The notes under the pieces were generated by a model. The model was not told the DNA's origin and did not search any database. It worked only from the letters and a program-made list of their open reading frames with translations. Shown here in pieces: positions 19,801 through 60,150 of a DNA stretch of 64,000 nucleotides (position 1 is the first letter of the stretch; every line of letters begins with the position of its first letter). The stretch is taken from positions 24,554,001-24,618,000 of the forward strand of contig OZ249436.1 of NCBI GenBank assembly GCA_965235115.1, in the 5' to 3' direction. The DNA comes from Laetmonice hystrix (taxonomy: Eukaryota). Both the position numbers and the translations under genes were made by a program.

Positions 19801-22043
19801 TTTAAAAAGTCACAGAACCCCAATCCGGCCCTAATATGTCACTCCCAGTACCAATAGACGCTGGAAGCACCATCAACTGAAATTCAGGCCTAGAACCCAC
19901 CTCTCTCTACCAATATCATGCACCTAGTCCGTATACGAGGTTGTAATTTCCTTTAATCAACGGGCTGCGCCGCAGCAACCCACTCTGGTCTTTGCAATCT
20001 TTTTCAATATGCGTTAACATTTGTGACCAGCTCAACGCGCCTTGTAAAATTTTTCAAAGTGCGTAAAAGTGTGTGTCCACCCCGACACGCTTTCCAAACC
20101 ACTATACCCACCGAGCGACATCCACTCAAATACAGGCTTCGACCGATCCTCACTGTGCCAATAATCCGCCACAAGGCAAATTCAGTCAATGCAAGCTGGA
20201 AAATCGAATGTCAAACCTAATGCTCCCCCCCCAGCACGTTAACTGAAAAAAATCAACTAGCTTGAAAACTAGAATATAGCTTTGTTTAGCTAACAATCTA
20301 CTCTCCCAGCGCCATCAACTCGCATACAGGCGTAAAAGCAAACGCACTGCCCCATATAATGCTCCCAGCATAAAACGATGTTGCAATTAATTTAAAATTA
20401 ACAAGATGCACTAGTAATCCGATCCAAGCCTAATTACGTCATTGCTAGTTTCATAACCAAATCTCACAGAAAATACCCCACCCGCGCACATAACCTGAAA
20501 ATATTCAACTTTTATCTCCAATGTATCCCTGTGCACCTAGTAGCACCCAAGCGGGCCCAATTTTGACATTCCAACACAAATACCGCAAATACCCGCCTAA
20601 TGGCACAAAAAACTTTCTACCCCGTTGCAAGTCACATTAGCTTGCTGCTTGTCGTAAAAAATGGTGCAGACCATTTCTAAAGTCACAGTACCCCACTCCC
20701 GGCCTAATATTACGTTTCAGTATCCATATACGCTGCAAGCGGCAGAAACTCGAATACAGGCCTAAAAGTAACCCCAGTCTAGCAATATCATACTCTCATG
20801 CCATATACGAGCTTGTAATTATCTTTAATTAATGGGCTCCGCAGCACCAACCCACTGCATTAACATTTGTTTAACAGCTTAACGCACCTTGTAAAAAAAT
20901 TTTCAAGTGCGTAAAAATGCGTGTCCACCTCCACATACTTTAAAAATCACTATACCCACCCAGCGACATTCACTCTAATACACGCCTAAGAGGAACTTCA
21001 CTGTCCCATTTGATTCTCCAGCACGTATAGGATGTTTCAAGTAACATTTATCCACGGTCTGGCCCAATAACGTGCAACAAGGCATAGTAAGTCAATGCGA
21101 GCTCGCATGTCAAACCTAACCCGCCCCCCAGCACATGAGCTGAAAATATTCAAATAGCTTGAAAACTAGAATATAGCTTTGCTCAATACCATTATACCAT
21201 CAACTCGCATTACAGGCCTAATGCGAAGCTCCCAGCCTAAAACGAGTTTCCAATTAATTTAAAGTTAACAAGATGCACTAATAATCGATTCCAAGCCTAA
21301 TTAGGCCATTGCTAGTTGGATAACCAAATCTCATACAAAATACACCCTCCCGGCAGATGACCTGAGAATATTCAACTCTTATGTCCGATATATCCCTGTC
21401 CGCTTAGTAGCACCCAGCCGGGCCCCCATTTTGACATTGCAACACCAATACAGCAAGTGCCCAGCTAACAGCACAAATAACAGGATTCAGGGCTTCCTAC
21501 CACGTTACAAGTCACAATAGATTGCTGCCTGTCGTAAAAATATACCAGACCATTTTAAAAAGTCACAGAACCCCAATCCGGCCCTAATATGTCACTCCCA
21601 GTACCAATACACGCTGGAAGCACCATCAACTGAAATTCAGGCCTAGAACCCACCTCTCTCTACCAATATCATGCACCTAGTCCGTATACGAGGTTGTAAT
21701 TTACTTTAATCAACGGGCTGCGCCGCAGCAACCCACTCTGGTCTTTGCAATCTTTTTCAATATGCGTTAACATTTGTAACCAGCTCAACGCGCCTTGTAA
21801 AATTTTTCAAAGTGCGTAAAAGTGTGTGTCCACCCCGACACGCTTTCCAAACCACTATACCCACCGAGCGACATCCACTCAAATACAGGCTTCGACCGAT
21901 CCTCACTGTGCCAATAATCCGCCACAAGGCAAATTCAGTCAATGCAAGCTGGAAAATCGAATGTCAAACCTAATGCTCCCCCCCCCCAGCACGTTAACTG
22001 AAAATAATCAACTAGCTTGAAAACTAGAATATAGCTTTGTTAA

Positions 22044-23172
22044 AGCCAAATGCAACAATCCAGCTACCTTATACCTTCCCATATGCCTTATACAATAAAG
22101 AATAACATCAGCAATAAATGCAGGTCAATAGGTTTTACATAAACGAGAATGCCAACCTTAAACTACGAGTACCGTACCTCTAGCCGAGAAATGAACTCGG
22201 CGCCATTTTACATCACATTATCACATGGGAGATTGATTTAGCCAATCAAAAACAGTCAGGTCACCCGGAAGTGTGACGTCGCCAGAGCCGCGAGTTTCCA
22301 CCAGCTGTCAGATCGGGTGAGGATACAAGGTAGTCAGAGAGTCTAGACTGAGAGCTGCGAGTAAGATTATCCGTGTCATAGTACTAGGAGACCGATCAGC
22401 AGGTCTAACCACACCACTGACTTGGTGCTGATCCTTCGTGAAGATATGCCTGGGTGTGCTAGCTGAACGGTAGCCCGACGCTTTGACAGTGGCAGTGCAC
22501 GCCATGTCCCCGGCCGTAGACTGCCGTAGTCTGTCACTACTGTCAGACTCCATCCATGACCCAACCAGTGTACATTTCATTCTCTAGTTGACAATTCTCC
22601 GTATAAATAATAGCTTTCAGCCACCATTTCATGCGTTGGAGGGTATTGCGACGAATTTCTGTTCGTTTAAGCGCCCGGTAAGAGATTTTTCAATACGTTG
22701 TCGATCGACCAAATTGGCATGTCTGGCCCCGTCCAACCACCAGTGCACGCCCGTCGGGAGCACCGTGCTGCCCCGTTGTTGACTTCCCCACCTGACTCGG
22801 GTGTCGGGGTGAGTGAGGCATGGAGCCTGGGACAGGGCACGCATGAAGGGGACATGAAGTCATGTAATCGACATGGGCCGAGATAACCATGGTCCGAGTT
22901 CACCAGTAACCATTATTGTACATAGTGTCCGTGAAGATGGTTGACCAACACAGTGATGGGGGAATGGGGTAGGCTCTAGGGACGCCATTTTTTAAGGTCT
23001 CACGGCAGTGAATTTCGGCAAGATGGACGCCGTGAGCAAACGGGCAACTGTCAGTTTCTATCGGGGATTACTTTTAACACACAGACTTTGTGGGAATTAG
23101 ATGGTGGCAGGTAAAAGGCACTATACCATGGTTATCCATGGGCCCTATTGCTAGTGGCGGTTTCGGATCGCT
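22044..23172. mobile_element. Non-autonomous TTAA-targeting DNA transposon, 1,129 bp (Kolobok-like ends), copy 1
   Basis: Empty site is ctttg-TTAA-gctaac; filled site is ctttg-TTAA(22040-22043)-AGCCAAATGC...CGGATCGCT-TTAA(23173-23176)-gctaac. Unit spacing rises by exactly 1133 bp. No credible ORF. Family assignment is inferred from the TTAA duplication and RR...YY ends. Confidence 0.85.
22199..22280 (+). promoter_or_regulatory. Putative Pol II promoter motif cluster inside the element (YY1-like, CCAAT, ETS, CRE-like); present in all four copies
   Basis: ggcgccatttt (22199-22209), agccaatca (22240-22248), ccggaagtg (22265-22273) and tgacgtc (22274-22280) lie within 82 bp. Motif matches only, with no functional evidence. 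Confidence 0.45.
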
Positions 23173-26100
23173 TTAAGCTAACAATCTACTCTCCCAGCGC
23201 CATCAACTCGCATACAGGCGTAAAAGCAAACGCACTGCCCCATATAATGCTCCCAGCCTAAAACGATGTTGCAATTAATTTAAAATTAACAAGATGCACT
23301 AGTAATCCGATCCAAGCCTAATTACGTCATTGCCAGTTTCATAACCAAATCTCACAGAAAATACCCCACCCGCGCACATAACCTGAAAATATTCAACTTT
23401 TATCTCCAATGTATCCCTGTGCACCTAGTAGCACCCAAGCGGGCCCAATTTTGACATTCCAACACAAATACCGCAAATACCCGCCTAATGGCACAAAAAA
23501 CTTTCTACCCCGTTGCAAGTCACATTAGCTTGCTGCTTGTCGTAAAAAATGGTGCAGACCATTTCTAAAGTCACAGTACCCCACTCCCGGCCTAATATTA
23601 CGTTTCAGTATCCATATACGCTGCAAGCGGCAGGAACTCGAATACAGGCCTAAAAGTAACCCCAGTCTAGCAATATCATACTCTCATGCCATATACGAGC
23701 TTGTAATTATCTTTAATTAATGGGCTCCGCAGCACCAACCCACTGCATTAACATTTGTTTAACAGCTTAACGCACCTTGTAAAAAATTTTCAAGTGCGTA
23801 AAAATGCGTGTCCACCTCCACATACTTTAAAAATCACTATACCCACCCAGCGACATTCACTCTAATACACGCCTAAGAGGAACTTCACTGTCCCATTTGA
23901 TTCTCCAGCACGTATAGGATGTTTCAAGTAACATTTATCCACGGTCTGGCCCAATAACGTGCAACAAGGCATAGTAAGTCAATGCGACCTCGCATGTCAA
24001 ACCTAACCCGCCCCCCAGCACATGAGCTCGAGATATTCAAATAGCTTGAAAACTAGAATATAGCTTTGCTTAATACCATTATACCATCAACTCGCATTAC
24101 AGGCCTAATGCGAAGCTCCCAGCCTAAAACGAGTTTCCAATTAATTTAAAGTTAACAAGATGCACTAATAATCGATTCCAAGCCTAATTAGGCCATTGCT
24201 AGTTGGATAACCAAATCTCATACAAAATACACCCTCCCGGCAGATGACCTGAGAATATTCAACTCTTATGTCCGATATATCCCTGTCCGCTTAGTAGCAC
24301 CCAGCCGGGCCCCCATTTTGACATTGCAACACCAATACAGCAAGTGCCCAGCTAACAGCACAAATAACAGGATTCAGGGCTTCCTACCACGTTACAAGTC
24401 ACAATAGATTGCTGCCTGTCGTAAAAATATACCAGACCATTTTAAAAAGTCACAGAACCCCAATCCGGCCCTAATATGTCACTCCCAGTACCAATACACT
24501 CTGGAAGCACCATCAACTGAAATTCAGGCCTAGAACCCACCTCTCTCTACCAATATCATGCACCTAGTCCGTATACGAGGTTGTAATTTACTTTAATCAA
24601 CGGGCTGCGCCGCAGCAACCCACTCTGGTCTTTGCAATCTTTTTCAATATGCGTTAACATTTGTAACCAGCTCAACGCGCCTTGTAAAATTTTTCAAAGT
24701 GCGTAAAAGTGTGTGTCCACCCCGACACGCTTTCCAAACCACTATACCCACCGAGCGACATCCACTCAAATACAGGCTTCGACCGATCCTCACTGTGCCA
24801 ATAATCCGCCACAAGGCAAATTCAGTCAATGCAAGCTGGAAAATCGAATGTCAAACCTAATACTCCCCCCCCCCAGCACGTTAACTGAAAATAATCAACT
24901 AGCTTGAAAACTAGAATATAGCTTTGTTTAGCTAACAATCTACTCTCCCAGCGCCATCAACTCGCATACAGGCGTAAAAGCAAACGCACTGCCCCATATA
25001 ATGCTCCCAGCCTAAAACGATGTTGCAATTAATTTAAAATTAACAAGATGCACTAGTAATCCGATCCAAGCTTAATTACGTCATTGCTAGTTTCATAACC
25101 AAATCTCACAGAAAATACCCCACCCGGGCACATAACCTGAAAATATTCAACTTTTATCTCCAATGTATCCCTGTGCACCTAGTAGCACCCAAGCGGGCCC
25201 AATTTTGACATCCCAACACAAATACCGCAAATACCCGCCTAATGGCACAAAAAACTTTCTACCCCGTTGCAAGTCACATTAGCGTGCTGCTTGTCGTAAA
25301 AAATGGTGCAGACCATTTCTAAAGTCACAGTACCCCACTCCCGGCCTAATATTACGTTTCAGTATCCATATACGCTGCAAGCGGCAGGAACTCGAATACA
25401 GGCCTAAAAGTAACCTCAGTCTAGCAATATCATACTCCCATGCCATATACGAGCTTGTAATTATCTTTAATTAATGGGCTCCGCAGCACCAACCCACTGC
25501 ATTAACATTTGTTTAACAGCTTAACACACCTTGTAAAATTTTTTCAAGTGCGTAAAAATGCGTGTCCACCTCCACATACTTTAAAAATCACTATACCCAC
25601 CCAGCGACATCCACTCTAATACACGCCTAAAAGGAACTTCACTGTCCCATTTGATTCTCCAGCACGTATAGGATGTTTCAAGTAACATTCATCCACGGTC
25701 TGGCCCAATAACGTGCAACAAGGCATAGTAAGTCAATGCGAGCTCGCATGTCAAACCTAACCCGCCCCCAAGCACATGAGCTGAAAATATTCAAATAGCT
25801 TGAAAACTAGAATATAGCTTTGCTTAATACCATTATACCATCAACTCGCATTACAGGCCTAATGCGAAGCTCCCAGCCTAAAACGAGTTTCCAATTAATT
25901 TAAAGTTAACAAGATGCACTAATAATCGATTCCAAGCCTAATTAGGCCATTGCTAGTTGGATAACCAAATCTCATACAAAATACACCCTCCCGGCAGATG
26001 ACCTGAGAATATTCAACTCTTATGTCCGATATATCCCTGTCCGCTTAGTAGCACCCAGCCGGGCCCCCATTTTGACATTGCAACACCAATACAGCAAGTG

Positions 26101-32100: not shown

Positions 32101-33697
32101 TAGTTTCATAACCAAATCTCACAGAAAATACCCCACCCGCGCACATAACCTGAAAATATTCAACTTTTATCTCCAATGTATCCCTGTGCACCTAGTAGCA
32201 CCCAAGCGGGCCCAATTTTGACATTCCAACACAAATACCGCAAATACCCGCCTAATGGCACAAAAAACTTTCTACCCCGTTGCAAGTCACATTAGCTTGC
32301 TGCTTGTCGTAAAAAATGGTGCAGACCATTTCTAAAGTCACAGTACCCCACTCCCGGCCTAATATTACGTTTCAGTATCCATATACGCTGCAAGCGGCAG
32401 GAACTCGAATACAGGCCTAAAAGTAACCCCAGTCTAGCAATATCATACTCTCATGCCATATACGAGCTTGTAATTATCTTTAATTAATGGGCTCCGCAGC
32501 ACCAACCCACTGCATTAACATTTGTTTAACAGCTTAACGCACCTTGTAAAAAATTTTCAAGTGCGTAAAAATGCGTGTCCACCTCCACATACTTTAAAAA
32601 TCACTATACCCACCCAGCGACATTCACTCTAATACACGCCTAAGAGGAACTTCACTGTCCCATTTGATTCTCCAGCACGTATAGGATGTTTCAAGTAACA
32701 TTTATCCACGGTCTGGCCCAATAACGTGCAACAAGGCATAGTAAGTCAATGCGACCTCGCATGTCAAACCTAACCCGCCCCCCAGCACATGAGCTCGAGA
32801 TATTCAAATAGCTTGAAAACTAGAATATAGCTTTGCTTAATACCATTATACCATCAACTCGCATTACAGGCCTAATGCGAAGCTCCCAGCCTAAAACGAG
32901 TTTCCAATTAATTTAAAGTTAACAAGATGCACTAATAATCGATTCCAAGCCTAATTAGGCCATTGCTAGTTGGATAAACAAATCTCATACAAAATACACC
33001 CTCCCGGCAGATGACCTGAGAATATTCAACTCTTATGTCCGATATATCCCTGTCCGCTTAGTAGCACCCAGCCGGGCCCCCATTTTGACATTGCAACACC
33101 AATACAGCAAGTGCCCAGCTAACAGCACAAATAACAGGATTCAGGGCTTCCTACCACGTTACAAGTCACAATAGATTGCTGCCTGTCGTAAAAATATACC
33201 AGACCATTTTAAAAAGTCACAGAACCCCAATCCGGCCCTAATATGTCACTCCCAGTACCAATAGACGCTGGAAGCACCATCAACTGAAATTCAGGCCTAG
33301 AACCCACCTCTCTCTACCAATATCATGCACCTAGTCCGTATACGAGGTTGTAATTTACTTTAATCAACGGGCTGCGCCGCAGCAACCCACTCTGGTCTTT
33401 GCAATCTTTTTCAATATGCGTTAACATTTGTGACCAGCTCAACGCGCCTTGTAAAATTTTTCAAAGTGCGTAAAAGTGTGTGTCCACCCCGACACGCTTT
33501 CCAAACCACTATACCCACCGAGCGACATCCACTCAAATACAGGCTTCGACCGATCCTCACTGTGCCAATAATCCGCCACAAGGCAAATTCAGTCAATGCA
33601 AGCTGGAAAATCGAATGTCAAACCTAATGCTCCCCCCCCCCAGCACGTTAACTGAAAATAATCAACTAGCTTGAAAACTAGAATATAGCTTTGTTAA

Positions 33698-34826
33698 AGC
33701 CAAATGCAACAATCCAGCTACCTTATACCTTCCCATATGCCTTATACAATAAAGAATAACATCAGCAATAAATGCAGGTCAATAGGTTTTACATAAACGA
33801 GAATGCCAACCTTAAACTACGAGTACCGTACCTCTAGCCGAGAAATGAACTCGGCGCCATTTTACATCACATTATCACATGGGAGATTGATTCAGCCAAT
33901 CAAAAACAGTCAGGTCACCCGGAAGTGTGACGTCGCCAGAGCCGCGAGTTTCCACCAGCTGTCAGATCGGGTGAGGATACAAGGTAGTCAGAGAGTCTAG
34001 ACTGAGAGCTGCGAGTAAGATTATCCGTGTCATAGTACTAGGAGACCGATCAGCAGGTCTAACCACACCACTGACTTGGTGCTGATCCTTCGTGAAGATA
34101 TGCCTGGGTGTGCTAGCTGAACGGTAGCCCGACGCTTTGACAGTGGCAGTGCACGCCATGTCCCCGGCCGTAGACTGCCGTAGTCTGTCACTACTGTCAG
34201 ACTCCATCCATGACCCAACCAGTGTACATTTCATTCTCTAGTTGACAATTCTCCGTATAAATAATAGCTTTCAGCCACCATTTCATGCGTTGGAGGGTAT
34301 TGCGACGAATTTCTGTTCGTTTAAGCGCCCGGTAAGAGATTTTTCAATACGTTGTCGATCGACCAAATTGGCATGTCTGGCCCCGTCCAACCACCAGTGC
34401 ACGCCCGTCGGGAGCACCGTGCTGCCCCGTTGTTGACTTCCCCACCTGACTCGGGTGTCGGGGTGAGTGAGGCATGGAGCCTGGGACAGGGCACGCATGA
34501 AGGGGACATGAAGTCATGTAATCGACATGGGCCGAGATAACCATGGTCCGAGTTCACCAGTAACCATTATTGTACATAGTGTCCGTGAAGATGGTTGACC
34601 AACACAGTGATGGGGGAATGGGGTAGGCTCTAGGGACGCCATTTTTTAAGGTCTCACGGCAGTGAATTTCGGCAAGATGGACGCCGTGAGCAAACGGGCA
34701 ACTGTCAGTTTCTATCGGGGATTACTTTTAACACACAGACTTTGTGGGAATTAGATGGTGGCAGGTAAAAGGCACTATACCATGGTTATCCATGGGCCCT
34801 ATTGCTAGTGGCGGTTTCGGATCGCT
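33698..34826. mobile_element. Same 1,129-bp element, copy 2
   Basis: TTAA at 33694-33697 and 34827-34830; same site and orientation as copy 1; ORF-track entries repeat at an offset of 11,654 bp. Confidence 0.85.
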
Positions 34827-37800
34827 TTAAGCTAACAATCTACTCTCCCAGCGCCATCAACTCGCATACAGGCGTAAAAGCAAACGCACTGCCCCATATA
34901 ATGCTCCCAGCCTAAAACGATGTTGCAATTAATTTAAAATTAACAAGATGCACTAGTAATCCGATCCAAGCCTAATTACGTCATTGCTAGTTTCATAACC
35001 AAATCTCACAGAAAATACCCCACCCGCGCACATAACCTGAAAATATTCAACTTTTATCTCCAATGTATCCCTGTGCACCTAGTAGCACCCAAGCGGGCCC
35101 AATTTTGACATTCCAACACAAATACCGCAAATACCCGCCTAATGGCACAAAAAACTTTCTACCCCGTTGCAAGTCACATTAGCTTGCTGCTTGTCGTAAA
35201 AAATGGTGCAGACCATTTCTAAAGTCACAGTACCCCACTCCCGGCCTAATATTACGTTTCAGTATCCATATACGCTGCAAGCGGCAGGAACTCGAATACA
35301 GGCCTAAAAGTAACCCCAGTCTAGCAATATCATACTCTCATGCCATATACGAGCTTGTAATTATCTTTAATTAATGGGCTCCGCAGCACCAACCCACTGC
35401 ATTAACATTTGTTTAACAGCTTAACGCACCTTGTAAAAAATTTTCAAGTGCGTAAAAATGCGTGTCCACCTCCACATACTTTAAAAATCACTATACCCAC
35501 CCAGCGACATTCACTCTAATACACGCCTAAGAGGAACTTCACTGTCCCATTTGATTCTCCAGCACGTATAGGATGTTTCAAGTAACATTTATCCACGGTC
35601 TGGCCCAATAACGTGCAACAAGGCATAGTAAGTCAATGCGACCTCGCATGTCAAACCTAACCCGCCCCCCAGCACATGAGCTCGAGATATTCAAATAGCT
35701 TGAAAACTAGAATATAGCTTTGCTTAATACCATTATACCATCAACTCGCATTACAGGCCTAATGCGAAGCTCCCAGCCTAAAACGAGTTTCCAATTAATT
35801 TAAAGTTAACAAGATGCACTAATAATCGATTCCAAGCCTAATTAGGCCATTGCTAGTTGGATAACCAAATCTCATACAAAATACACCCTCCCGGCAGATG
35901 ACCTGAGAATATTCAACTCTTATGTCCGATATATCCCTGTCCGCTTAGTAGCACCCAGCCGGGCCCCCATTTTGACATTGCAACACCAATACAGCAAGTG
36001 CCCAGCTAACAGCACAAATAACAGGATTCAGGGCTTCCTACCACGTTACAAGTCACAATAGATTGCTGCCTGTCGTAAAAATATACCAGACCATTTTAAA
36101 AAGTCACAGAACCCCAATCCGGCCCTAATATGTCACTCCCAGTACCAATACACTCTGGAAGCACCATCAACTGAAATTCAGGCCTAGAACCCACCTCTCT
36201 CTACCAATATCATGCACCTAGTCCGTATACGAGGTTGTAATTTACTTTAATCAACGGGCTGCGCCGCAGCAACCCACTCTGGTCTTTGCAATCTTTTTCA
36301 ATATGCGTTAACATTTGTAACCAGCTCAACGCGCCTTGTAAAATTTTTCAAAGTGCGTAAAAGTGTGTGTCCACCCCGACACGCTTTCCAAACCACTATA
36401 CCCACCGAGCGACATCCACTCAAATACAGGCTTCGACCGATCCTCACTGTGCCAATAATCCGCCACAAGGCAAATTCAGTCAATGCAAGCTGGAAAATCG
36501 AATGTCAAACCTAATACTCCCCCCCCCCAGCACGTTAACTGAAAATAATCAACTAGCTTGAAAACTAGAATATAGCTTTGTTTAGCTAACAATCTACTCT
36601 CCCAGCGCCATCAACTCGCATACAGGCGTAAAAGCAAACGCACTGCCCCATATAATGCTCCCAGCCTAAAACGATGTTGCAATTAATTTAAAATTAACAA
36701 GATGCACTAGTAATCCGATCCAAGCTTAATTACGTCATTGCTAGTTTCATAACCAAATCTCACAGAAAATACCCCACCCGGGCACATAACCTGAAAATAT
36801 TCAACTTTTATCTCCAATGTATCCCTGTGCACCTAGTAGCACCCAAGCGGGCCCAATTTTGACATCCCAACACAAATACCGCAAATACCCGCCTAATGGC
36901 ACAAAAAACTTTCTACCCCGTTGCAAGTCACATTAGCGTGCTGCTTGTCGTAAAAAATGGTGCAGACCATTTCTAAAGTCACAGTACCCCACTCCCGGCC
37001 TAATATTACGTTTCAGTATCCATATACGCTGCAAGCGGCAGGAACTCGAATACAGGCCTAAAAGTAACCTCAGTCTAGCAATATCATACTCCCATGCCAT
37101 ATACGAGCTTGTAATTATCTTTAATTAATGGGCTCCGCAGCACCAACCCACTGCATTAACATTTGTTTAACAGCTTAACACACCTTGTAAAATTTTTTCA
37201 AGTGCGTAAAAATGCGTGTCCACCTCCACATACTTTAAAAATCACTATACCCACCCAGCGACATCCACTCTAATACACGCCTAAAAGGAACTTCACTGTC
37301 CCATTTGATTCTCCAGCACGTATAGGATGTTTCAAGTAACATTCATCCACGGTCTGGCCCAATAACGTGCAACAAGGCATAGTAAGTCAATGCGAGCTCG
37401 CATGTCAAACCTAACCCGCCCCCAAGCACATGAGCTGAAAATATTCAAATAGCTTGAAAACTAGAATATAGCTTTGCTTAATACCATTATACCATCAACT
37501 CGCATTACAGGCCTAATGCGAAGCTCCCAGCCTAAAACGAGTTTCCAATTAATTTAAAGTTAACAAGATGCACTAATAATCGATTCCAAGCCTAATTAGG
37601 CCATTGCTAGTTGGATAACCAAATCTCATACAAAATACACCCTCCCGGCAGATGACCTGAGAATATTCAACTCTTATGTCCGATATATCCCTGTCCGCTT
37701 AGTAGCACCCAGCCGGGCCCCCATTTTGACATTGCAACACCAATACAGCAAGTGCCCAGCTAACAGCACAAATAACAGGATTCAGGGCTTCCTACCACGT

Positions 37801-40092
37801 TACAAGTCACAATAGATTGCTGCCTGTCGTAAAAATATACCAGACCATTTTAAAAAGTCACAGAACCCCAATCCGGCCCTAATATGTCACTCCCAGTACC
37901 AATAGACGCTGGAAGCACCATCAACTGAAATTCAGGCCTAGAACCCACCTCTCTCTACCAATATCATGCACCTAGTCCGTATACGAGGTTGTAATTTCCT
38001 TTAATCAACGGGCTGCGCCGCAGCAACCCACTCTGGTCTTTGCAATCTTTTTCAATATGCGTTAACATTTGTGACCAGCTCAACGCGCCTTGTAAAATTT
38101 TTCAAAGTGCGTAAAAGTGTGTGTCCACCCCGACACGCTTTCCAAACCACTATACCCACCGAGCGACATCCACTCAAATACAGGCTTCGACCGATCCTCA
38201 CTGTGCCAATAATCCGCCACAAGGCAAATTCAGTCAATGCAAGCTGGAAAATCGAATGTCAAACCTAATGCTCCCCCCCCAGCACGTTAACTGAAAAAAA
38301 TCAACTAGCTTGAAAACTAGAATATAGCTTTGTTTAGCTAACAATCTACTCTCCCAGCGCCATCAACTCGCATACAGGCGTAAAAGCAAACGCACTGCCC
38401 CATATAATGCTCCCAGCATAAAACGATGTTGCAATTAATTTAAAATTAACAAGATGCACTAGTAATCCGATCCAAGCCTAATTACGTCATTGCTAGTTTC
38501 ATAACCAAATCTCACAGAAAATACCCCACCCGCGCACATAACCTGAAAATATTCAACTTTTATCTCCAATGTATCCCTGTGCACCTAGTAGCACCCAAGC
38601 GGGCCCAATTTTGACATTCCAACACAAATACCGCAAATACCCGCCTAATGGCACAAAAAACTTTCTACCCCGTTGCAAGTCACATTAGCTTGCTGCTTGT
38701 CGTAAAAAATGGTGCAGACCATTTCTAAAGTCACAGTACCCCACTCCCGGCCTAATATTACGTTTCAGTATCCATATACGCTGCAAGCGGCAGGAACTCG
38801 AATACAGGCCTAAAAGTAACCCCAGTCTAGCAATATCATACTCTCATGCCATATACGAGCTTGTAATTATCTTTAATTAATGGGCTCCGCAGCACCAACC
38901 CACTGCATTAACATTTGTTTAACAGCTTAACGCACCTTGTAAAAAAAATTTCAAGTGCGTAAAAATGCGTGTCCACCTCCACATACTTTAAAAATCACTA
39001 TACCCACCCAGCGACATTCACTCTAATACACGCCTAAGAGGAACTTCACTGTCCCATTTGATTCTCCAGCACGTATAGGATGTTTCAAGTAACATTTATC
39101 CACGGTCTGGCCCAATAACGTGCAACAAGGCATAGTAAGTCAATGCGAGCTCGCATGTCAAACCTAACCCGCCCCCCAGCACATGAGCTGAAAATATTCA
39201 AATAGCTTGAAAACTAGAATATAGCTTTGCTTAATACCATTATACCATCAACTCGCATTACAGGCCTAATGCGAAGCTCCCAGCCTAAAACGAGTTTCCA
39301 ATTAATTTAAAGTTAACAAGATGCACTAATAATCGATTCCAAGCCTAATTAGGCCATTGCTAGTTGGATAACCAAATCTCATACAAAATACACCCTCCCG
39401 GCAGATGACCTGAGAATATTCAACTCTTATGTCCGATATATCCCTGTCCGCTTAGTAGCACCCAGCCGGGCCCCCATTTTGACATTGCAACACCAATACA
39501 GCAAGTGCCCAGCTAACAGCACAAATAACAGGATTCAGGGCTTCCTACCACGTTACAAGTCACAATAGATTGCTGCCTGTCGTAAAAATATACCAGACCA
39601 TTTTAAAAAGTCACAGAACCCCAATCCGGCCCTAATATGTCACTCCCAGTACCAATAGACGCTGGAAGCACCATCAACTGAAATTCAGGCCTAGAACCCA
39701 CCTCTCTCTACCAATATCATGCACCTAGTCCGTATACGAGGTTGTAATTTACTTTAATCAACGGGCTGCGCCGCAGCAACCCACTCTGGTCTTTGCAATC
39801 TTTTTCAATATGCGTTAACATTTGTGACCAGCTCAACGCGCCTTGTAAAATTTTTCAAAGTGCGTAAAAGTGTGTGTCCACCCCGACACGCTTTCCAAAC
39901 CACTATACCCACCGAGCGACATCCACTCAAATACAGGCTTCGACCGATCCTCACTGTGCCAATAATCCGCCACAAGGCAAATTCAGTCAATGCAAGCTGG
40001 AAAATCGAATGTCAAACCTAATGCTCCCCCCCCCCCAGCACGTTAACTGAAAATAATCAACTAGCTTGAAAACTAGAATATAGCTTTGTTAA

Positions 40093-41221
40093 AGCCAAAT
40101 GCAACAATCCAGCTACCTTATACCTTCCCATATGCCTTATACAATAAAGAATAACATCAGCAATAAATGCAGGTCAATAGGTTTTACATAAACGAGAATG
40201 CCAACCTTAAACTACGAGTACCGTACCTCTAGCCGAGAAATGAACTCGGCGCCATTTTACATCACATTATCACATGGGAGATTGATTCAGCCAATCAAAA
40301 ACAGTCAGGTCACCCGGAAGTGTGACGTCGCCAGAGCCGCGAGTTTCCACCAGCTGTCAGATCGGGTGAGGATACAAGGTAGTCAGAGAGTCTAGACTGA
40401 GAGCTGCGAGTAAGATTATCCGTGTCATAGTACTAGGAGACCGATCAGCAGGTCTAACCACACCACTGACTTGGTGCTGATCCTTCGTGAAGATATGCCT
40501 GGGTGTGCTAGCTGAACGGTAGCCCGACGCTTTGACAGTGGCAGTGCACGCCATGTCCCCGGCCGTAGACTGCCGTAGTCTGTCACTACTGTCAGACTCC
40601 ATCCATGACCCAACCAGTGTACATTTCATTCTCTAGTTGACAATTCTCCGTATAAATAATAGCTTTCGGCCACCATTTCATGCGTTGGAGGGTATTGCGA
40701 CGAATTTCTGTTCGTTTAAGCGCCCGGTAAGAGATTTTTCAATACGTTGTCGATCGACCAAATTGGCATGTCTGGCCCCGTCCAACCACCAGTGCACGCC
40801 CGTCGGGAGCACCGTGCTGCCCCGTTGTTGACTTCCCCACCTGACTCGGGTGTCGGGGTGAGTGAGGCATGGAGCCTGGGACAGGGCACGCATGAAGGGG
40901 ACATGAAGTCATGTAATCGACATGGGCCGAGATAACCATGGTCCGAGTTCACCAGTAACCATTATTGTACATAGTGTCCGTGAAGATGGTTGACCAACAC
41001 AGTGATGGGGGAATGGGGTAGGCTCTAGGGACGCCATTTTTTAAGGTCTCACGGCAGTGAATTTCGGCAAGATGGACGCCGTGAGCAAACGGGCAACTGT
41101 CAGTTTCTATCGGGGATTACTTTTAACACACAGACTTTGTGGGAATTAGATGGTGGCAGGTAAAAGGCACTATACCATGGTTATCCATGGGCCCTATTGC
41201 TAGTGGCGGTTTCGGATCGCT
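40093..41221. mobile_element. Same 1,129-bp element, copy 3
   Basis: TTAA at 40089-40092 and 41222-41225; one private A>G change seen at 40668. Confidence 0.85.
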
Positions 41222-44200
41222 TTAAGCTAACAATCTACTCTCCCAGCGCCATCAACTCGCATACAGGCGTAAAAGCAAACGCACTGCCCCATATAATGCT
41301 CCCAGCCTAAAACGATGTTGCAATTAATTTAAAATTAACAAGATGCACTAGTAATCCGATCCAAGCCTAATTACGTCATTGCTAGTTTCATAACCAAATC
41401 TCACAGAAAATACCCCACCCGCGCACATAACCTGAAAATATTCAACTTTTATCTCCAATGTATCCCTGTGCACCTAGTAGCACCCAAGCGGGCCCAATTT
41501 TGACATTCCAACACAAATACCGCAAATACCCGCCTAATGGCACAAAAAACTTTCTACCCCGTTGCAAGTCACATTAGCTTGCTGCTTGTCGTAAAAAATG
41601 GTGCAGACCATTTCTAAAGTCACAGTACCCCACTCCCGGCCTAATATTACGTTTCAGTATCCATATACGCTGCAAGCGGCAGGAACTCGAATACAGGCCT
41701 AAAAGTAACCCCAGTCTAGCAATATCATACTCTCATGCCATATACGAGCTTGTAATTATCTTTAATTAATGGGCTCCGCAGCACCAACCCACTGCATTAA
41801 CATTTGTTTAACAGCTTAACGCACCTTGTAAAAAATTTTCAAGTGCGTAAAAATGCGTGTCCACCTCCACATACTTTAAAAATCACTATACCCACCCAGC
41901 GACATTCACTCTAATACACGCCTAAGAGGAACTTCACTGTCCCATTTGATTCTCCAGCACGTATAGGATGTTTCAAGTAACATTTATCCACGGTCTGGCC
42001 CAATAACGTGCAACAAGGCATAGTAAGTCAATGCGACCTCGCATGTCAAACCTAACCCGCCCCCCAGCACATGAGCTCGAGATATTCAAATAGCTTGAAA
42101 ACTAGAATATAGCTTTGCTTAATACCATTATACCATCAACTCGCATTACAGGCCTAATGCGAAGCTCCCAGCCTAAAACGAGTTTCCAATTAATTTAAAG
42201 TTAACAAGATGCACTAATAATCGATTCCAAGCCTAATTAGGCCATTGCTAGTTGGATAACCAAATCTCATACAAAATACACCCTCCCGGCAGATGACCTG
42301 AGAATATTCAACTCTTATGTCCGATATATCCCTGTCCGCTTAGTAGCACCCAGCCGGGCCCCCATTTTGACATTGCAACACCAATACAGCAAGTGCCCAG
42401 CTAACAGCACAAATAACAGGATTCAGGGCTTCCTACCACGTTACAAGTCACAATAGATTGCTGCCTGTCGTAAAAATATACCAGACCATTTTAAAAAGTC
42501 ACAGAACCCCAATCCGGCCCTAATATGTCACTCCCAGTACCAATACACTCTGGAAGCACCATCAACTGAAATTCAGGCCTAGAACCCACCTCTCTCTACC
42601 AATATCATGCACCTAGTCCGTATACGAGGTTGTAATTTACTTTAATCAACGGGCTGCGCCGCAGCAACCCACTCTGGTCTTTGCAATCTTTTTCAATATG
42701 CGTTAACATTTGTAACCAGCTCAACGCGCCTTGTAAAATTTTTCAAAGTGCGTAAAAGTGTGTGTCCACCCCGACACGCTTTCCAAACCACTATACCCAC
42801 CGAGCGACATCCACTCAAATACAGGCTTCGACCGATCCTCACTGTGCCAATAATCCGCCACAAGGCAAATTCAGTCAATGCAAGCTGGAAAATCGAATGT
42901 CAAACCTAATACTCCCCCCCCCCCCAGCACGTTAACTGAAAATAATCAACTAGCTTGAAAACTAGAATATAGCTTTGTTTAGCTAACAATCTACTCTCCC
43001 AGCGCCATCAACTCGCATACAGGCGTAAAAGCAAACGCACTGCCCCATATAATGCTCCCAGCCTAAAACGATGTTGCAATTAATTTAAAATTAACAAGAT
43101 GCACTAGTAATCCGATCCAAGCTTAATTACGTCATTGCTAGTTTCATAACCAAATCTCACAGAAAATACCCCACCCGGGCACATAACCTGAAAATATTCA
43201 ACTTTTATCTCCAATGTATCCCTGTGCACCTAGTAGCACCCAAGCGGGCCCAATTTTGACATCCCAACACAAATACCGCAAATACCCGCCTAATGGCACA
43301 AAAAACTTTCTACCCCGTTGCAAGTCACATTAGCGTGCTGCTTGTCGTAAAAAATGGTGCAGACCATTTCTAAAGTTACAGTACCCCACTCCCGGCCTAA
43401 TATTACGTTTCAGTATCCATATACGCTGCAAGCGGCAGGAACTCGAATACAGGCCTAAAAGTAACCTCAGTCTAGCAATATCATACTCCCATGCCATATA
43501 CGAGCTTGTAATTATCTTTAATTAATGGGCTCCGCAGCACCAACCCACTGCATTAACATTTGTTTAACAGCTTAACACACCTTGTAAAATTTTTTCAAGT
43601 GCGTAAAAATGCGTGTCCACCTCCACATACTTTAAAAATCACTATACCCACCCAGCGACATCCACTCTAATACACGCCTAAAAGGAACTTCACTGTCCCA
43701 TTTGATTCTCCAGCACGTATAGGATGTTTCAAGTAACATTCATCCACGGTCTGGCCCAATAACGTGCAACAAGGCATAGTAAGTCAATGCGAGCTCGCAT
43801 GTCAAACCTAACCCGCCCCCAAGCACATGAGCTGAAAATATTCAAATAGCTTGAAAACTAGAATATAGCTTTGCTTAATACCATTATACCATCAACTCGC
43901 ATTACAGGCCTAATGCGAAGCTCCCAGCCTAAAACGAGTTTCCAATTAATTTAAAGTTAACAAGATGCACTAATAATCGATTCCAAGCCTAATTAGGCCA
44001 TTGCTAGTTGGATAACCAAATCTCATACAAAATACACCCTCCCGGCAGATGACCTGAGAATATTCAACTCTTATGTCCGATATATCCCTGTCCGCTTAGT
44101 AGCACCCAGCCGGGCCCCCATTTTGACATTGCAACACCAATACAGCAAGTGCCCAGCTAACAGCACAAATAACAGGATTCAGGGCTTCCTACCACGTTAC

Positions 44201-47200: not shown

Positions 47201-48244
47201 ACTGTCCCATTTGATTCTCCAGCACGTATAGGATGTTTCAAGTAACATTTATCCACGGTCTGGCCCAATAACGTGCAACAAGGCATAGTAAGTCAATGCG
47301 ACCTCGCATGTCAAACCTAACCCGCCCCCCAGCACATGAGCTCGAGATATTCAAATAGCTTGAAAACTAGAATATAGCTTTGCTTAATACCATTATACCA
47401 TCAACTCGCATTACAGGCCTAATGCGAAGCTCCCAGCCTAAAACGAGTTTCCAATTAATTTAAAGTTAACAAGATGCACTAATAATCGATTCCAAGCCTA
47501 ATTAGGCCATTGCTAGTTGGATAACCAAATCTCATACAAAATACACCCTCCCGGCAGATGACCTGAGAATATTCAACTCTTATGTCCGATATATCCCTGT
47601 CCGCTTAGTAGCACCCAGCCGGGCCCCCATTTTGACATTGCAACACCAATACAGCAAGTGCCCAGCTAACAGCACAAATAACAGGATTCAGGGCTTCCTA
47701 CCACGTTACAAGTCACAATAGATTGCTGCCTGTCGTAAAAATATACCAGACCATTTTAAAAAGTCACAGAACCCCAATCCGGCCCTAATATGTCACTCCC
47801 AGTACCAATAGACGCTGGAAGCACCATCAACTGAAATTCAGGCCTAGAACCCACCTCTCTCTACCAATATCATGCACCTAGTCCGTATACGAGGTTGTAA
47901 TTTACTTTAATCAACGGGCTGCGCCGCAGCAACCCACTCTGGTCTTTGCAATCTTTTTCAATATGCGTTAACATTTGTGACCAGCTCAACGCGCCTTGTA
48001 AAATTTTTCAAAGTGCGTAAAAGTGTGTGTCCACCCCGACACGCTTTCCAAACCACTATACCCACCGAGCGACATCCACTCAAATACAGGCTTCGACCGA
48101 TCCTCACTGTGCCAATAATCCGCCACAAGGCAAATTCAGTCAATGCAAGCTGGAAAATCGAATGTCAAACCTAATGCCCCCCCCCCCCAGCACGTTAACT
48201 GAAAATAATCAACTAGCTTGAAAACTAGAATATAGCTTTGTTAA

Positions 48245-49373
48245 AGCCAAATGCAACAATCCAGCTACCTTATACCTTCCCATATGCCTTATACAATAAA
48301 GAATAACATCAGCAATAAATGCAGGTCAATAGGTTTTACATAAACGAGAATGCCAACCTTAAACTACGAGTACCGTACCTCTAGCCGAGAAATGAACTCG
48401 GCGCCATTTTACATCACATTATCACATGGGAGATTGATTCAGCCAATCAAAAACAGTCAGGTCACCCGGAAGTGTGACGTCGCCAGAGCCGCGAGTTTCC
48501 ACCAGCTGTCAGATCGGGTGAGGATACAAGGTAGTCAGAGAGTCTAGACTGAGAGCTGCGAGTAAGATTATCCGTGTCATAGTACTAGGAGACCGATCAG
48601 CAGGTCTAACCACACCACTGACTTGGTGCTGATCCTTCGTGAAGATATGCCTGGGTGTGCTAGCTGAACGGTAGCCCGACGCTTTGACAGTGGCAGTGCA
48701 CGCCATGTCCCCGGCCGTAGACTGCCGTAGTCTGTCACTACTGTCAGACTCCATCCATGACCCAACCAGTGTACATTTCATTCTCTAGTTGACAATTCTC
48801 CGTATAAATAATAGCTTTCAGCCACCATTTCATGCGTTGGAGGGTATTGCGACGAATTTCTGTTCGTTTAAGCGCCCGGTAAGAGATTTTTCAATACGTT
48901 GTCGATCGACCAAATTGGCATGTCTGGCCCCGTCCAACCACCAGTGCACGCCCGTCGGGAGCACCGTGCTGCCCCGTTGTTGACTTCCCCACCTGACTCG
49001 GGTGTCGGGGTGAGTGAGGCATGGAGCCTGGGACAGGGCACGCATGAAGGGGACATGAAGTCATGTAATCGACATGGGCCGAGATAACCATGGTCCGAGT
49101 TCACCAGTAACCATTATTGTACATAGTGTCCGTGAAGATGGTTGACCAACACAGTGATGGGGGAATGGGGTAGGCTCTAGGGACGCCATTTTTTAAGGTC
49201 TCACGGCAGTGAATTTCGGCAAGATGGACGCCGTGAGCAAACGGGCAACTGTCAGTTTCTATCGGGGATTACTTTTAACACACAGACTTTGTGGGAATTA
49301 GATGGTGGCAGGTAAAAGGCACTATACCATGGTTATCCATGGGCCCTATTGCTAGTGGCGGTTTCGGATCGCT
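48245..49373. mobile_element. Same 1,129-bp element, copy 4
   Basis: TTAA at 48241-48244 and 49374-49377; no difference from copy 2 noticed by eye. Confidence 0.85.
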
Positions 49374-52300
49374 TTAAGCTAACAATCTACTCTCCCAGCG
49401 CCATCAACTCGCATACAGGCGTAAAAGCAAACGCACTGCCCCATATAATGCTCCCAGCCTAAAACGATGTTGCAATTAATTTAAAATTAACAAGATGCAC
49501 TAGTAATCCGATCCAAGCCTAATTACGTCATTGCTAGTTTCATAACCAAATCTCACAGAAAATACCCCACCCGCGCACATAACCTGAAAATATTCAACTT
49601 TTATCTCCAATGTATCCCTGTGCACCTAGTAGCACCCAAGCGGGCCCAATTTTGACATTCCAACACAAATACCGCAAATACCCGCCTAATGGCACAAAAA
49701 ACTTTCTACCCCGTTGCAAGTCACATTAGCTTGCTGCTTGTCGTAAAAAATGGTGCAGACCATTTCTAAAGTCACAGTACCCCACTCCCGGCCTAATATT
49801 ACGTTTCAGTATCCATATACGCTGCAAGCGGCAGGAACTCGAATACAGGCCTAAAAGTAACCCCAGTCTAGCAATATCATACTCTCATGCCATATACGAG
49901 CTTGTAATTATCTTTAATTAATGGGCTCCGCAGCACCAACCCACTGCATTAACATTTGTTTAACAGCTTAACGCACCTTGTAAAAAATTTTCAAGTGCGT
50001 AAAAATGCGTGTCCACCTCCACATACTTTAAAAATCACTATACCCACCCAGCGACATTCACTCTAATACACGCCTAAGAGGAACTTCACTGTCCCATTTG
50101 ATTCTCCAGCACGTATAGGATGTTTCAAGTAACATTTATCCACGGTCTGGCCCAATAACGTGCAACAAGGCATAGTAAGTCAATGCGACCTCGCATGTCA
50201 AACCTAACCCGCCCCCCAGCACATGAGCTGGAGATATTCAAATAGCTTGAAAACTAGAATATAGCTTTGCTTAATACCATTATACCATCAACTCGCATTA
50301 CAGGCCTAATGCGAAGCTCCCAGCCTAAAACGAGTTTCCAATTAATTTAAAGTTAACAAGATGCACTAATAATCGATTCCAAGCCTAATTAGGCCATTGC
50401 TAGTTGGATAACCAAATCTCATACAAAATACACCCTCCCGGCAGATGACCTGAGAATATTCAACTCTTATGTCCGATATATCCCTGTCCGCTTAGTAGCA
50501 CCCAGCCGGGCCCCCATTTTGACATTGCAACACCAATACAGCAAGTGCCCAGCTAACAGCACAAATAACAGGATTCAGGGCTTCCTACCACGTTACAAGT
50601 CACAATAGATTGCTGCCTGTCGTAAAAATATACCAGACCATTTTAAAAAGTCACAGAACCCCAATCCGGCCCTAATATGTCACTCCCAGTACCAATAGAC
50701 GCTGGAAGCACCATCAACTGAAATTCAGGCCTAGAACCCACCTCTCTCTACCAATATCATGCACCTAGTCCGTATACGAGGTTGTAATTTACTTTAATCA
50801 ACGGGCTGCGCCGCAGCAACCCACTCTGGTCTTTGCAATTTTTTTCAATATGCGTTAACATTTGTGACCAGCTCAACGCGCCTTGTAAAATTTTTCAAAG
50901 TGCGTAAAAGTGTGTGTCCACCCCGACACGCTTTCCAAACCACTATACCCACCGAGCGACATCCACTCAAATACAGGCTTCGACCGATCCTCACTGTGCC
51001 AATAATCCGCCACAAGGCAAATTCAGTCAATGCAAGCTGGAAAATCGAATGTCAAACCTAATGCTCCCCCCCCCCCAGCACGTTAACTGAAAATAATCAA
51101 CTAGCTTGAAAACTAGAATATAGCTTTGTTAAGCTAACAATCTACTCTCCCAGCGCCATCAACTCGCATACAGGCGTAAAAGCAAACGCACTGCCCCATA
51201 TAATGCTCCCAGCCTAAAACGATGTTGCAATTAATTTAAAATTAACAAGATGCACTAGTAATCCGATCCAAGCCTAATTACGTCATTGCTAGTTTCATAA
51301 CCAAATCTCACAGAAAATACCCCACCCGCGCACATAACCTGAAAATATTCAACTTTTATCTCCAATGTATCCCTGTGCACCTAGTAGCACCCAAGCGGGC
51401 CCAATTTTGACATTCCAACACAAATACCGCAAATACCCGCCTAATGGCACAAAAAACTTTCTACCCCGTTGCAAGTCACATTAGCTTGCTGCTTGTCGTA
51501 AAAAATGGTGCAGACCATTTCTAAAGTCACAGTACCCCACTCCCGGCCTAATATTACGTTTCAGTATCCATATACGCTGCAAGCGGCAGGAACTCGAATA
51601 CAGGCCTAAAAGTAACCCCAGTCTAGCAATATCATACTCCCATGCCATATACGAGCTTGTAATTATCTTTAATTAATGGGCTCCGCAGCACCAACCCACT
51701 GCATTAACATTTGTTTAACAGCTTAACGCACCTTGTAAAATTTTTTCAAGTGCGTAAAAATGCGTGTCCACCTCCACATACTTTAAAAATCACTATACCC
51801 ACCCAGCGACATTCACTCTAATACACGCCTAAGAGGAACTTCACTGTCCCATTTGATTCTCCAGCACGTATAGGATGTTTCAAGTAACATTTATCCACGG
51901 TCTGGCCCAATAACGTGCAACAAGGCATAGTAAGTCAATGCGACCTCGCATGTCAAACCTAACCCGCCCCCCAGCACATGAGCTGGAGATATTCAAATAG
52001 CTTGAAAACTAGAATATAGCTTTGCTTAATACCATTATACCATCAACTCGCATTACAGGCCTAATGCGAAGCTCCCAGCCTAAAACGAGTTTCCAATTAA
52101 TTTAAAGTTAACAAGATGCACTAATAATCGATTCCAAGCCTAATTAGGCCATTGCTAGTTGGATAACCAAATCTCATACAAAATACACCCTCCCGGCAGA
52201 TGACCTGAGAATATTCAACTCTTATGTCCGATATATCCCTGTCCGCTTAGTAGCACCCAGCCGGGCCCCCATTTTGACATTGCAACACCAATACAGCAAG

Positions 52301-55300: not shown

Positions 55301-58300
55301 ACTATACCCACCCAGCGACATTCACTCTAATACACGCCTAAGAGGAACTTCACTGTCCCATTTGATTCTCCAGCACGTATAGGATGTTTCAAGTAACATT
55401 TATCCACGGTCTGGCCCAATAACGTGCAACAAGGCATAGTAAGTCAATGCGAGCTCGCATGTCAAACCTAACCCGCCCCCCAGCACATGAGCTGAAAATA
55501 TTCAAATAGCTTGAAAACTAGAATATAGCTTTGCTTAATACCATTATACCATCAACTCGCATTACAGGCCTAATGCGAAGCTCCCAGCCTAAAACGAGTT
55601 TCCAATTAATTTAAAGTTAACAAGATGCACTAATAATCGATTCCAAGCCTAATTAGGCCATTGCTAGTTGGATAACCAAATCTCATACAAAATACACCCT
55701 CCCGGCAGATGACCTGAGAATATTCAACTCTTATGTCCGATATATCCCTGTCCGCTTAGTAGCACCCAGCCGGGCCCCCATTTTGACATTGCAACACCAA
55801 TACAGCAAGTGCCCAGCTAACAGCACAAATAACAGGATTCAGGGCTTCCTACCACGTTACAAGTCACAATAGATTGCTGCCTGTCGTAAAAATATACCAG
55901 ACCATTTTAAAAAGTCACAGAACCCCAATCCGGCCCTAATATGTCACTCCCAGTACCAATACACGCTGGAAGCACCATCAACTGAAATTCAGGCCTAGAA
56001 CCCACCTCTCTCTACCAATATCATGCACCTAGTCCGTTAACGAGGTTGTAATTTACTTTAATCAACGGGCTGCGCCGCAGCAACCCACTCTGGTCTTTGC
56101 AATCTTTTTCAATATGCGTTAACATTTGTAACCAGCTCAACGCGCCTTGTAAAATTTTTCAAAGTGCGTAAAAGTGTGTGTCCACCCCGACACGCTTTCC
56201 AAACCACTATACCCACCGAGCGACATCCACTCAAATACAGGCTTCGACCGATCCTCACTGTGCCAATAATCCGCCACAAGGCAAATTCAGTCAATGCAAG
56301 CTGGAAAATCGAATGTCAAACCTAATGCTCCCCCCCCCCAGCACGTTAACTGAAAATAATCAACTAGCTTGAAAACTAGAATATAGCTTTGTTAAGCTAA
56401 CAATCTACTCTCCCAGCGCCATCAACTCGCATACAGGCGTAAAAGCAAACGCACTGCCCCATATAATGCTTCCAGCCTAAAACGATGTTGCAATTAATTT
56501 AAAATTAACAAGATGCACTAGTAATCCGATCCAAGCCTAATTACGTCATTGCTAGTTTCATAACCAAATCTCACAGAAAATACCCCACCCGCGCACATAA
56601 CCTGAAAATATTCAACTTTTATCTCCAATGTATCCCTGTGCACCTAGTAGCACCCAAGCGGGCCCAATTTTGACATTCCAACACAAATACCGCAAATACC
56701 CGCCTAATGGCACAAAAAACTTTCTACCCCGTTGCAAGTCACATTAGCTTGCTGCTTGTCGTAAAAAATGGTGCAGACCATTTCTAAAGTCACAGTACCC
56801 CACTCCCGGCCTAATATTACGTTTCAGTATCCATATACGCTGCAAGCGGCAGGAACTCGAATACAGGCCTAAAAGTAACCCCAGTCTAGCAATATCATAC
56901 TCTCATGCCATATACGAGCTTGTAATTATCTTTAATTAATGGGCTCCGCAGCACCAACCCACTGCATTAACATTTGTTTAACAGCTTAACGCACCTTGTA
57001 AAAAATTTTCAAGTGCGTAAAAATGCGTGTCCACCTCCACATACTTTAAAAATCACTATACCCACCCAGCGACATTCACTCTAATACACGCCTAAGAGGA
57101 ACTTCACTGTCCCATTTGATTCTCCAGCACGTATAGGATGTTTCAAGTAACATTTATCCACGGTCTGGCCCAATAACGTGCAACAAGGCATAGTAAGTCA
57201 ATGCGACCTCGCATGTCAAACCTAACCCGCCCCCCAGCACATGAGCTGGAGATATTCAAATAGCTTGAAAACTAGAATATAGCTTTGCTTAATACCATTA
57301 TACCATCAACTCGCATTACAGGCCTAATGCGAAGCTCCCAGCCTAAAACGAGTTTCCAATTAATTTAAAGTTAACAAGATGCACTAATAATCGATTCCAA
57401 GCCTAATTAGGCCATTGCTAGTTGGATAACCAAATCTCATACAAAATACACCCTCCCGGCAGATGACCTGAGAATATTCAACTCTTATGTCCGATATATC
57501 CCTGTCCGCTTAGTAGCACCCAGCCGGGCCCCCATTTTGACATTGCAACACCAATACAGCAAGTGCCCAGCTAACAGCACAAATAACAGGATTCAGGGCT
57601 TCCTACCACGTTACAAGTCACAATAGATTGCTGCCTGTCGTAAAAATATACCAGACCATTTTAAAAAGTCACAGAACCCCAATCCGGCCCTAATATGTCA
57701 CTCCCAGTACCAATAGACGCTGGAAGCACCATCAACTGAAATTCAGGCCTAGAACCCACCTCTCTCTACCAATATCATGCACCTAGTCCGTATACGAGGT
57801 TGTAATTTACTTCAATCAACGGGCTGCGCCGCAGCAACCCACTCTGGTCTTTGCAATCTTTTTCAATATGCGTTAACATTTGTGACCAGCTCAACGCGCC
57901 TTGTAAAATTTTTCAAAGTGCGTAAAAGTGTGTGTCCACCCCGACACGCTTTCCAAACCACTATACCCACCGAGCGACATCCACTCAAATACAGGCTTCG
58001 ACCGATCCTACCTGTGCCAATAATCCGCCACAAGGCAAATTCAGTCAATGCAAGCTGGAAAATCGAATGTCAAACCTAATGCTCCCCCCCCAGCACGTTA
58101 ACTGAAAATAATCAACTAGCTTGAAAACTAGAATATAGCTTTGTTAAGCTAACAATCTACTCTCCCAGCGCCATCAACTCGCATACAGGCGTAAAAGCAA
58201 ACGCACTGCCCCATATAATGCTCCCAGCCTAAAACGATGTTGCAATTAATTTAAAATTAACAAGATGCACTAGTAATCCGATCCAAGCCTAATTACGTCA

Positions 58301-58523
58301 TTGCTAGTTTCATAACCAAATCTCACAGAAAATACCCCACCCGCGCACATAACCTGAAAATATTCAACTTTTATCTCCAATGTATCCCTGTGCACCTAGT
58401 AGCACCCAAGCGGGCCCAATTTTGACATTCCAACACAAATACCGCAAATACCCGCCTAATGGCACAAAAAACTTTCTACCCCGTTGCAAGTCACATTAGC
58501 TTGCTGCTTGTCGTAAAAAATGG

Positions 58524-58525
58524 TC
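58524..58525. other. Junction of a 131-bp deletion in monomer B
   Basis: Reads aaaaaatggt|catgccatata, whereas intact units have 131 bp between these (1379-1509 in unit 1). Local period is 1621 bp. Confidence 0.95.
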
Positions 58526-60148: not shown

Positions 60149-60150
60149 TC
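60149..60150. other. Second copy of the same 131-bp deletion junction
   Basis: Identical junction aaaaaatggt|catgccatata in the next unit; local period is 1625 bp. Confidence 0.95.

Follow-up and report, generated by a model that had tools for sequence, protein, structure and literature searches.

The window, the stretch of 64,000 nucleotides from Laetmonice hystrix analysed here, is one tandem array (positions 1-64000) with a dimeric satellite unit of 1,754 bp throughout. Within this array lies a non-coding stretch of 1,129 bp whose similarity to the satellite does not exceed that of shuffled sequences. The locus raises the question of whether this stretch is a mobile element and, if so, which kind of enzyme moves it.

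Insertion site within the satellite array

A representative host unit at 23177..24930 (plus strand) consists of two monomers of 896 and 858 bp, which are 82% alike over aligned columns. Open frames in the array are all short (up to 87 aa), the strand bias is strong with a GC skew of about -0.3, and recurring unit types suggest a loose higher-order repeat. Two consecutive units at 58148-61398 (1,625 and 1,626 bp) share a deletion of about 130 bp and thus provide a second marker of local duplication.

The element occupies positions 22044..23172 and is flanked by one TTAA copy on each side, the left at 22040..22043 and the right at 23173..23176 (all three features unstranded). The filled satellite site exceeds the empty one by 1,133 bp, and the word common to both element edges is exactly 4 bp long. 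This comparison confirms the length and the TTAA duplication given in the initial annotation. The duplication had been described there as clean against empty sites in neighbouring units; it holds, but the two nearest equivalent sites read TTTA instead of TTAA.

Four copies of the element are present in the window, at 22040, 33694, 40089 and 48241. The second (33694..34830), third (40089..41225) and fourth (48241..49377), all on the plus strand, are each bounded by both TTAA words. All four copies occupy the same satellite site in the same orientation, although each unit offers 17 other TTAA words. Among the 34 equivalent satellite sites 18 are empty and read TTTA, 12 are empty and read TTAA, and four are filled. 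Pairwise, the copies differ by 0-2 bases in 1,129, and the satellite units by 0.8% on average (33 units compared). The left neighbours of the copies belong to two unit types, while three of the four right neighbours are of one type. From this arrangement we infer that a single young insertion was amplified together with the array by unequal exchange. Consequently, the copies in the window all derive from one insertion and give no evidence of mobility.

Dispersed copies in contigs of public sequencing runs

Evidence from other loci was obtained from public sequencing runs. Of the sampled words, a fraction of 0.70-0.79 occurs in four runs that come from a single sample, as compared to 0.15 and 0.04 in two marine metagenomes from other studies. 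The contigs of four of the six runs, including those denoted X1, X3, X5 and X6, were compared with the element; X1 and X3 stem from one sample, possibly the one behind the assembly of the window.

In run X1 the element ends are joined to sequences other than the satellite. At the left boundary one contig keeps the TTAA copy and carries 207 loose letters before 22040. At the right boundary two contigs have loose ends starting behind 23176, with flanks that agree at only 0.62, as for two unrelated flanks, and one contig, about 95% like the element, has a loose end starting behind 23177. The listed non-satellite junctions thus amount to one flank on the left and at least three on the right, and TTAA is kept in 4/4. 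Three words taken from the boundary flanks have no match in the window at three mismatches, one of them being a consensus of two contigs and hence a weaker test. Furthermore, one contig of 364 nt, which equals 22813-23176 letter for letter, terminates precisely with the final A of TTAA, where flanks would branch. As non-satellite flanks meet the element ends at TTAA, the element is repeated at several unrelated loci and is mobile. The dispersed TTAA-flanked copies by which the initial annotation had proposed to judge its reading are therefore present in X1. A duplication of TA only, combined with a 4-bp terminal inverted repeat, was considered as well and rejected because the whole TTAA recurs at all four listed non-satellite junctions.

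The dispersed junctions come from the single run X1, since the six rows listed out of 148 loose ends in X3 all lie in satellite flanks (satellite variants), none of them at the element ends. The joint of the empty site is present in X3 as well, along with variants that carry indels and single contigs lacking internal parts. One of the latter passes over 788 bp (22081 to 22870) and retains 38 bp at the left end and about 300 bp at the right; it is possibly a shorter derivative that would bound the minimal left end. Pieces of the element are also found alongside satellite pieces in X5 (284 nt, two differences) and in X6 (covering 22324-22483), a co-occurrence by which the host is likely to be marine.

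Run X1 (58 million letters) holds almost no satellite, yet it covers the element. One of its contigs (785 nt, depth 654, a value that does not convey copy number) links the left half of the element (22040-22617) with a flank outside the satellite. Such a contig could stem from transcription out of, or into, a dispersed copy, although contigs cannot show strand, start or level. Other X1 contigs are about 80-95% like 22567-22785 and leave the element at 22567, 22598 and 22663 into other sequence. Judged from these similarities, the segment may be common to older relatives or to other families.

Termini and internal anatomy

The element begins with AG and ends with CT (AGC...GCT), as read directly and in agreement with the ends reported earlier. 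Aligning the left end with the reverse complement of the right end gives 3/3, 8/13 and 8/16 identical positions, whereby the earlier count of eight matches in 13 is reproduced. The left arm of this imperfect 13-bp terminal inverted repeat (TIR) lies at 22044..22056 on the plus strand, starts with AG and agrees with the right arm at positions 1-3, 5, 9 and 11-13. The right arm (23160..23172) starts with AG on the minus strand and is identical in the contig stopping at 23176. The match is modestly above chance, with a binomial P of 0.006, rising to 0.016 if any prefix of 8-25 bp is allowed and to 0.034 with the first two letters fixed. Local alignment of the terminal 60-250 bp revealed no inverted repeat beyond shuffles (P=0.35-0.59), and no direct repeat between the element halves was found beyond shuffles either (P=0.37). 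Similarly, the hairpin scan in 80-bp windows gave an unconvincing best z of -2.7 among 27 windows. With its length of 1.1 kb and no hairpin structure, the element is not a classic MITE. Since it occurs at several unrelated loci with TTAA kept at all four listed junctions, the poorly matched ends are a trait of the family and not a consequence of decay of the window copy.

Inside the termini, an 8-bp box is found in three copies, with no others within the element. Two of them are located near the left end at 22067..22074 and 22086..22093 (plus strand), and a single inverted copy with one mismatch is located near the right end at 23111..23118 (minus strand). These subterminal boxes are candidate transposase binding sites. 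A pattern of two plus one boxes arose in 0.36% of 5,000 shuffles of the ends, with windows that were picked after the pattern had been seen.

The left part of the element further contains an 80-bp promoter-like cluster at 22201..22280 (plus strand), composed of words which we take to be YY1-, CCAAT-, ETS- and CRE-like. Four motif types within 100 bp occurred in one of 3,000 dinucleotide shuffles, the motif list being post hoc; the satellite unit has a maximum of two motif types as against four in the element cluster. A second YY1-like word at 22983..22991 (plus strand) is identical to 22201-22209, and splice-donor-like words are located downstream of the cluster at 22315 and 22359. As far as sequence motifs can indicate, the boxes together with the promoter-like cluster would fit an internal-deletion derivative that has retained a putative transposase promoter and binding boxes.

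The initial annotation had assigned no coding capacity to the element, which is borne out by the frame lengths and by Pfam. Fourteen stop-to-stop frames of at least 40 aa overlap 22000-23250, the longest of 91 aa, and none of the 12 that lie wholly within the element, as opposed to the two extending into the satellite, matches Pfam at E<=1. Likewise, Rfam gave no match at E<=1 in 20000-25000, ARAGORN no tRNA gene and Tandem Repeats Finder no repeat (period limit 500). A bacterial promoter scan returned three promoters against 1.5 expected, its model being irrelevant to an animal host. Close to the right end, at 23125-23153, two overlapping 6-bp palindromes adjoin a word that may resemble the ends of non-autonomous animal Cryptons; this region has a 7-bp inverted partner near 22109 and a 12-bp inverted copy at 22882-22893.

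Superfamily assignment and its implications

As set out in PMC9587614, the features that define Kolobok, in contrast to piggyBac, are the duplication of TTAA and RR..YY termini. The element shows the TTAA duplication, the RR..YY termini and the interspersed copies of a Kolobok transposon. As to the short TIR of the superfamily, the 8/13 match (P=0.006-0.034) ranks below the Xenopus pairs and above the shortest KolobokP TIRs described below. It differs from the superfamily as described there in having neither a transposase nor an accessory gene, and its short, imperfect TIR is at the low end. Kolobok transposons occur in marine invertebrates, among them annelids and molluscs.

A further comparison is provided by Xenopus. 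All ten full-length Xenopus Kolobok copies in the available text of PMC6004289 have AG termini and left and right ends which differ from each other. The T2-MITEs and XKol elements described there thus resemble the element in the TTAA target, the AG termini and the unlike ends, while the T2-MITE ends read AGGRR as opposed to AGC. With the termini given in that part of the source, the Xenopus ends match at 10-12 of 13 positions over six subfamily pairs, and the 8/13 of the element lies below all of them. When scored against a profile built from the 12 Xenopus termini, each element end is weakly better than random (positions 3-13, P=0.04 for either end); of the 12 Xenopus ends scored after being left out, three are comparable to it and two are worse. 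In part 1 of 2 of Table S1 of PMC9587614, 8/176 KolobokP families have TIRs of 1-4 bp by hand count. The ends had earlier been called unusually asymmetric, and this was overstated, as the Xenopus ends are imperfect and some KolobokP TIRs measure only 1-4 bp, yet the match does fall below the six Xenopus pairs. The odd ends are real, but they are within the published Kolobok range.

Taken together, the element probably belongs to Kolobok as a non-autonomous DNA transposon that moves by cut and paste. The initial reading as a non-autonomous Kolobok-like element is thereby supported, namely by the dispersed TTAA-bounded copies and the RR..YY definition. The family would be a new addition to Kolobok if it has no entry in Dfam or Repbase so far. 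No paper was linked to the family by literature searches, text searches being unable to match sequence. A 17-base left-end word was found at four viral loci, where the similarity ends at 17-20 bases and is taken as chance, and a 21-base right-end word was found at one bacterial locus in prokaryote contigs with no similarity further out. The left- and right-end words have no locus in metagenome contigs, and blastn of the element against phages gave no match. Neither a real relative nor a coding partner thus emerged from the viral, metagenome and prokaryote contigs, which counts against the assignment.

The same termini can also be read as the substrate of a different enzyme. It is unlikely that a tyrosine recombinase or an unnamed transposase mobilises it as an active animal element with TTAA as target; in that event, which we rate no higher, the joined ends would form an asymmetric recombination site (two 13-bp arms with eight matches, placed around TTAA) helped by the two plus one boxes. 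A non-autonomous Crypton-type element, circularised and crossed over at its TTAA target by a tyrosine recombinase, is quite improbable, and equally so the notion that the two 13-bp arms around one TTAA are an imperfect recombination site. Joining the element ends does produce 13-bp arms with eight matching positions. Some later Repbase Crypton families are bounded by TTAA, and the word near 23143-23153 may resemble their ends. However, AG at both ends is a Kolobok hallmark, the element has no significant long subterminal inverted repeat, and the 14 joints listed include none that would close a circle from 23172 to 22044, contigs being apt to drop rare forms. The available parts of PMC3212892 describe Cryptons with terminal direct repeats of 4 or 6 bp and Crypton-type recombinases acting on inverted arms of 11-13 bp around a spacer of 6-8 bp. 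The non-autonomous Cryptons covered there resemble the element in having no clear TIR and a short direct repeat at both ends. Their published terminal repeats are not TTAA, and animal Cryptons yielded none. The TTAA of the element could be taken for such a direct repeat, but it goes together with a weak TIR. By hand count of supplement 1 of PMC3212892, none of the 94 tabulated families has TTAA terminal repeats and 12/12 animal rows are without determined terminal repeats; the main text contains no match to TTAA at a word start. The Crypton option offered in the initial annotation thus finds no support in these families.

About as improbable is a non-autonomous member of another TTAA-using DDE group, be it an atypical piggyBac, Sola3 or an unnamed lineage. 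TTAA is the piggyBac target as well, and in having more subterminal boxes at one end than at the other the element resembles piggyBac end anatomy. Sola3 is characterised by long TIRs and GAG termini; by this description it is set apart from the element, which has no long inverted repeat and whose ends start with AGC. With regard to piggyBac, the TTAA duplication is present, but the pyrimidine-starting YY..RR termini are not (both ends AG), and in the available parts of PMC9587614 it is the RR..YY configuration, here AG..CT, that separates Kolobok from piggyBac. Nevertheless, TTAA combined with AG could serve another enzyme.

KolobokP solo LTDRs, as described in the available parts of PMC9587614, are non-coding Kolobok-type units like the element, and some families have TIRs of 1-4 bp, including non-autonomous ones of the annelid Owenia. 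They measure about 450 or about 660 bp as compared to 1,129 bp, and those listed start with GG and have target duplications varying from 3 to 5 bp, in contrast to AG and TTAA in the element. Three of six element end words are absent from the available KolobokP supplements, and the four passages found for the others are internal, although line breaks may hide matches. Membership in KolobokP was therefore rejected on account of the size of the element, the missing long direct repeat and end words that have no terminal counterpart in those supplements. Captured non-mobile DNA that was copied into the satellite when a break was repaired through a fortuitous match of 4 bp, or else a solo repeat of a KolobokP or LTR element, is very improbable: it would agree with the origin of all window copies from one event, but it is largely refuted by the four non-satellite junctions stopping at TTAA, and a solo repeat is further opposed by the length, which is neither of the two LTDR sizes, by the missing long internal direct repeat and by the six end words. 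SINEs are marked by a tRNA or 5S head and a poly(A) tail, and solo LTRs by TG..CA termini. The element has neither poly(A) tail nor tRNA head, with no tRNA gene and no Rfam match as given above, and its ends are not TG..CA.

Returning to the Kolobok assignment, a mechanism may be proposed. Kolobok transposases, which contain the domains THAP, H2CH and DDE, are believed to act in trans on T2-MITEs, so that the Xenopus system offers a case of non-autonomous derivatives moved by an enzyme encoded elsewhere (PMC6004289, available parts). A Kolobok DDE transposase acting in trans would bind both element ends via the short shared terminal positions, perhaps aided by the three subterminal boxes, and would excise the element and insert it at TTAA, thereby duplicating this word. 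The element itself may have originated by internal deletion of a coding element, in which the promoter-like region of the left arm would have been retained. One copy would then have recently entered a satellite unit of the TTAA type, and unequal exchange within the array would have multiplied and reshuffled this single insertion.

In the likely case the element is one more non-autonomous Kolobok family, which in itself matters little. It is, however, a marker of turnover in a long-unit satellite, as a young insertion present at 4/34 sites with reshuffled flanks. In addition, its copies are young, their TIRs are weak and three subterminal boxes are present, which makes it well suited for establishing which terminal features a Kolobok transposase needs; no such mapping is contained in the available parts of PMC9587614 and PMC6004289. 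The finding would matter more if the partner enzyme were other than a Kolobok transposase. Should a tyrosine recombinase or an unnamed transposase move the element, some non-autonomous families that are called Kolobok-like by their ends only would be misassigned, and this young family would provide a substrate with which such an activity could be assayed.
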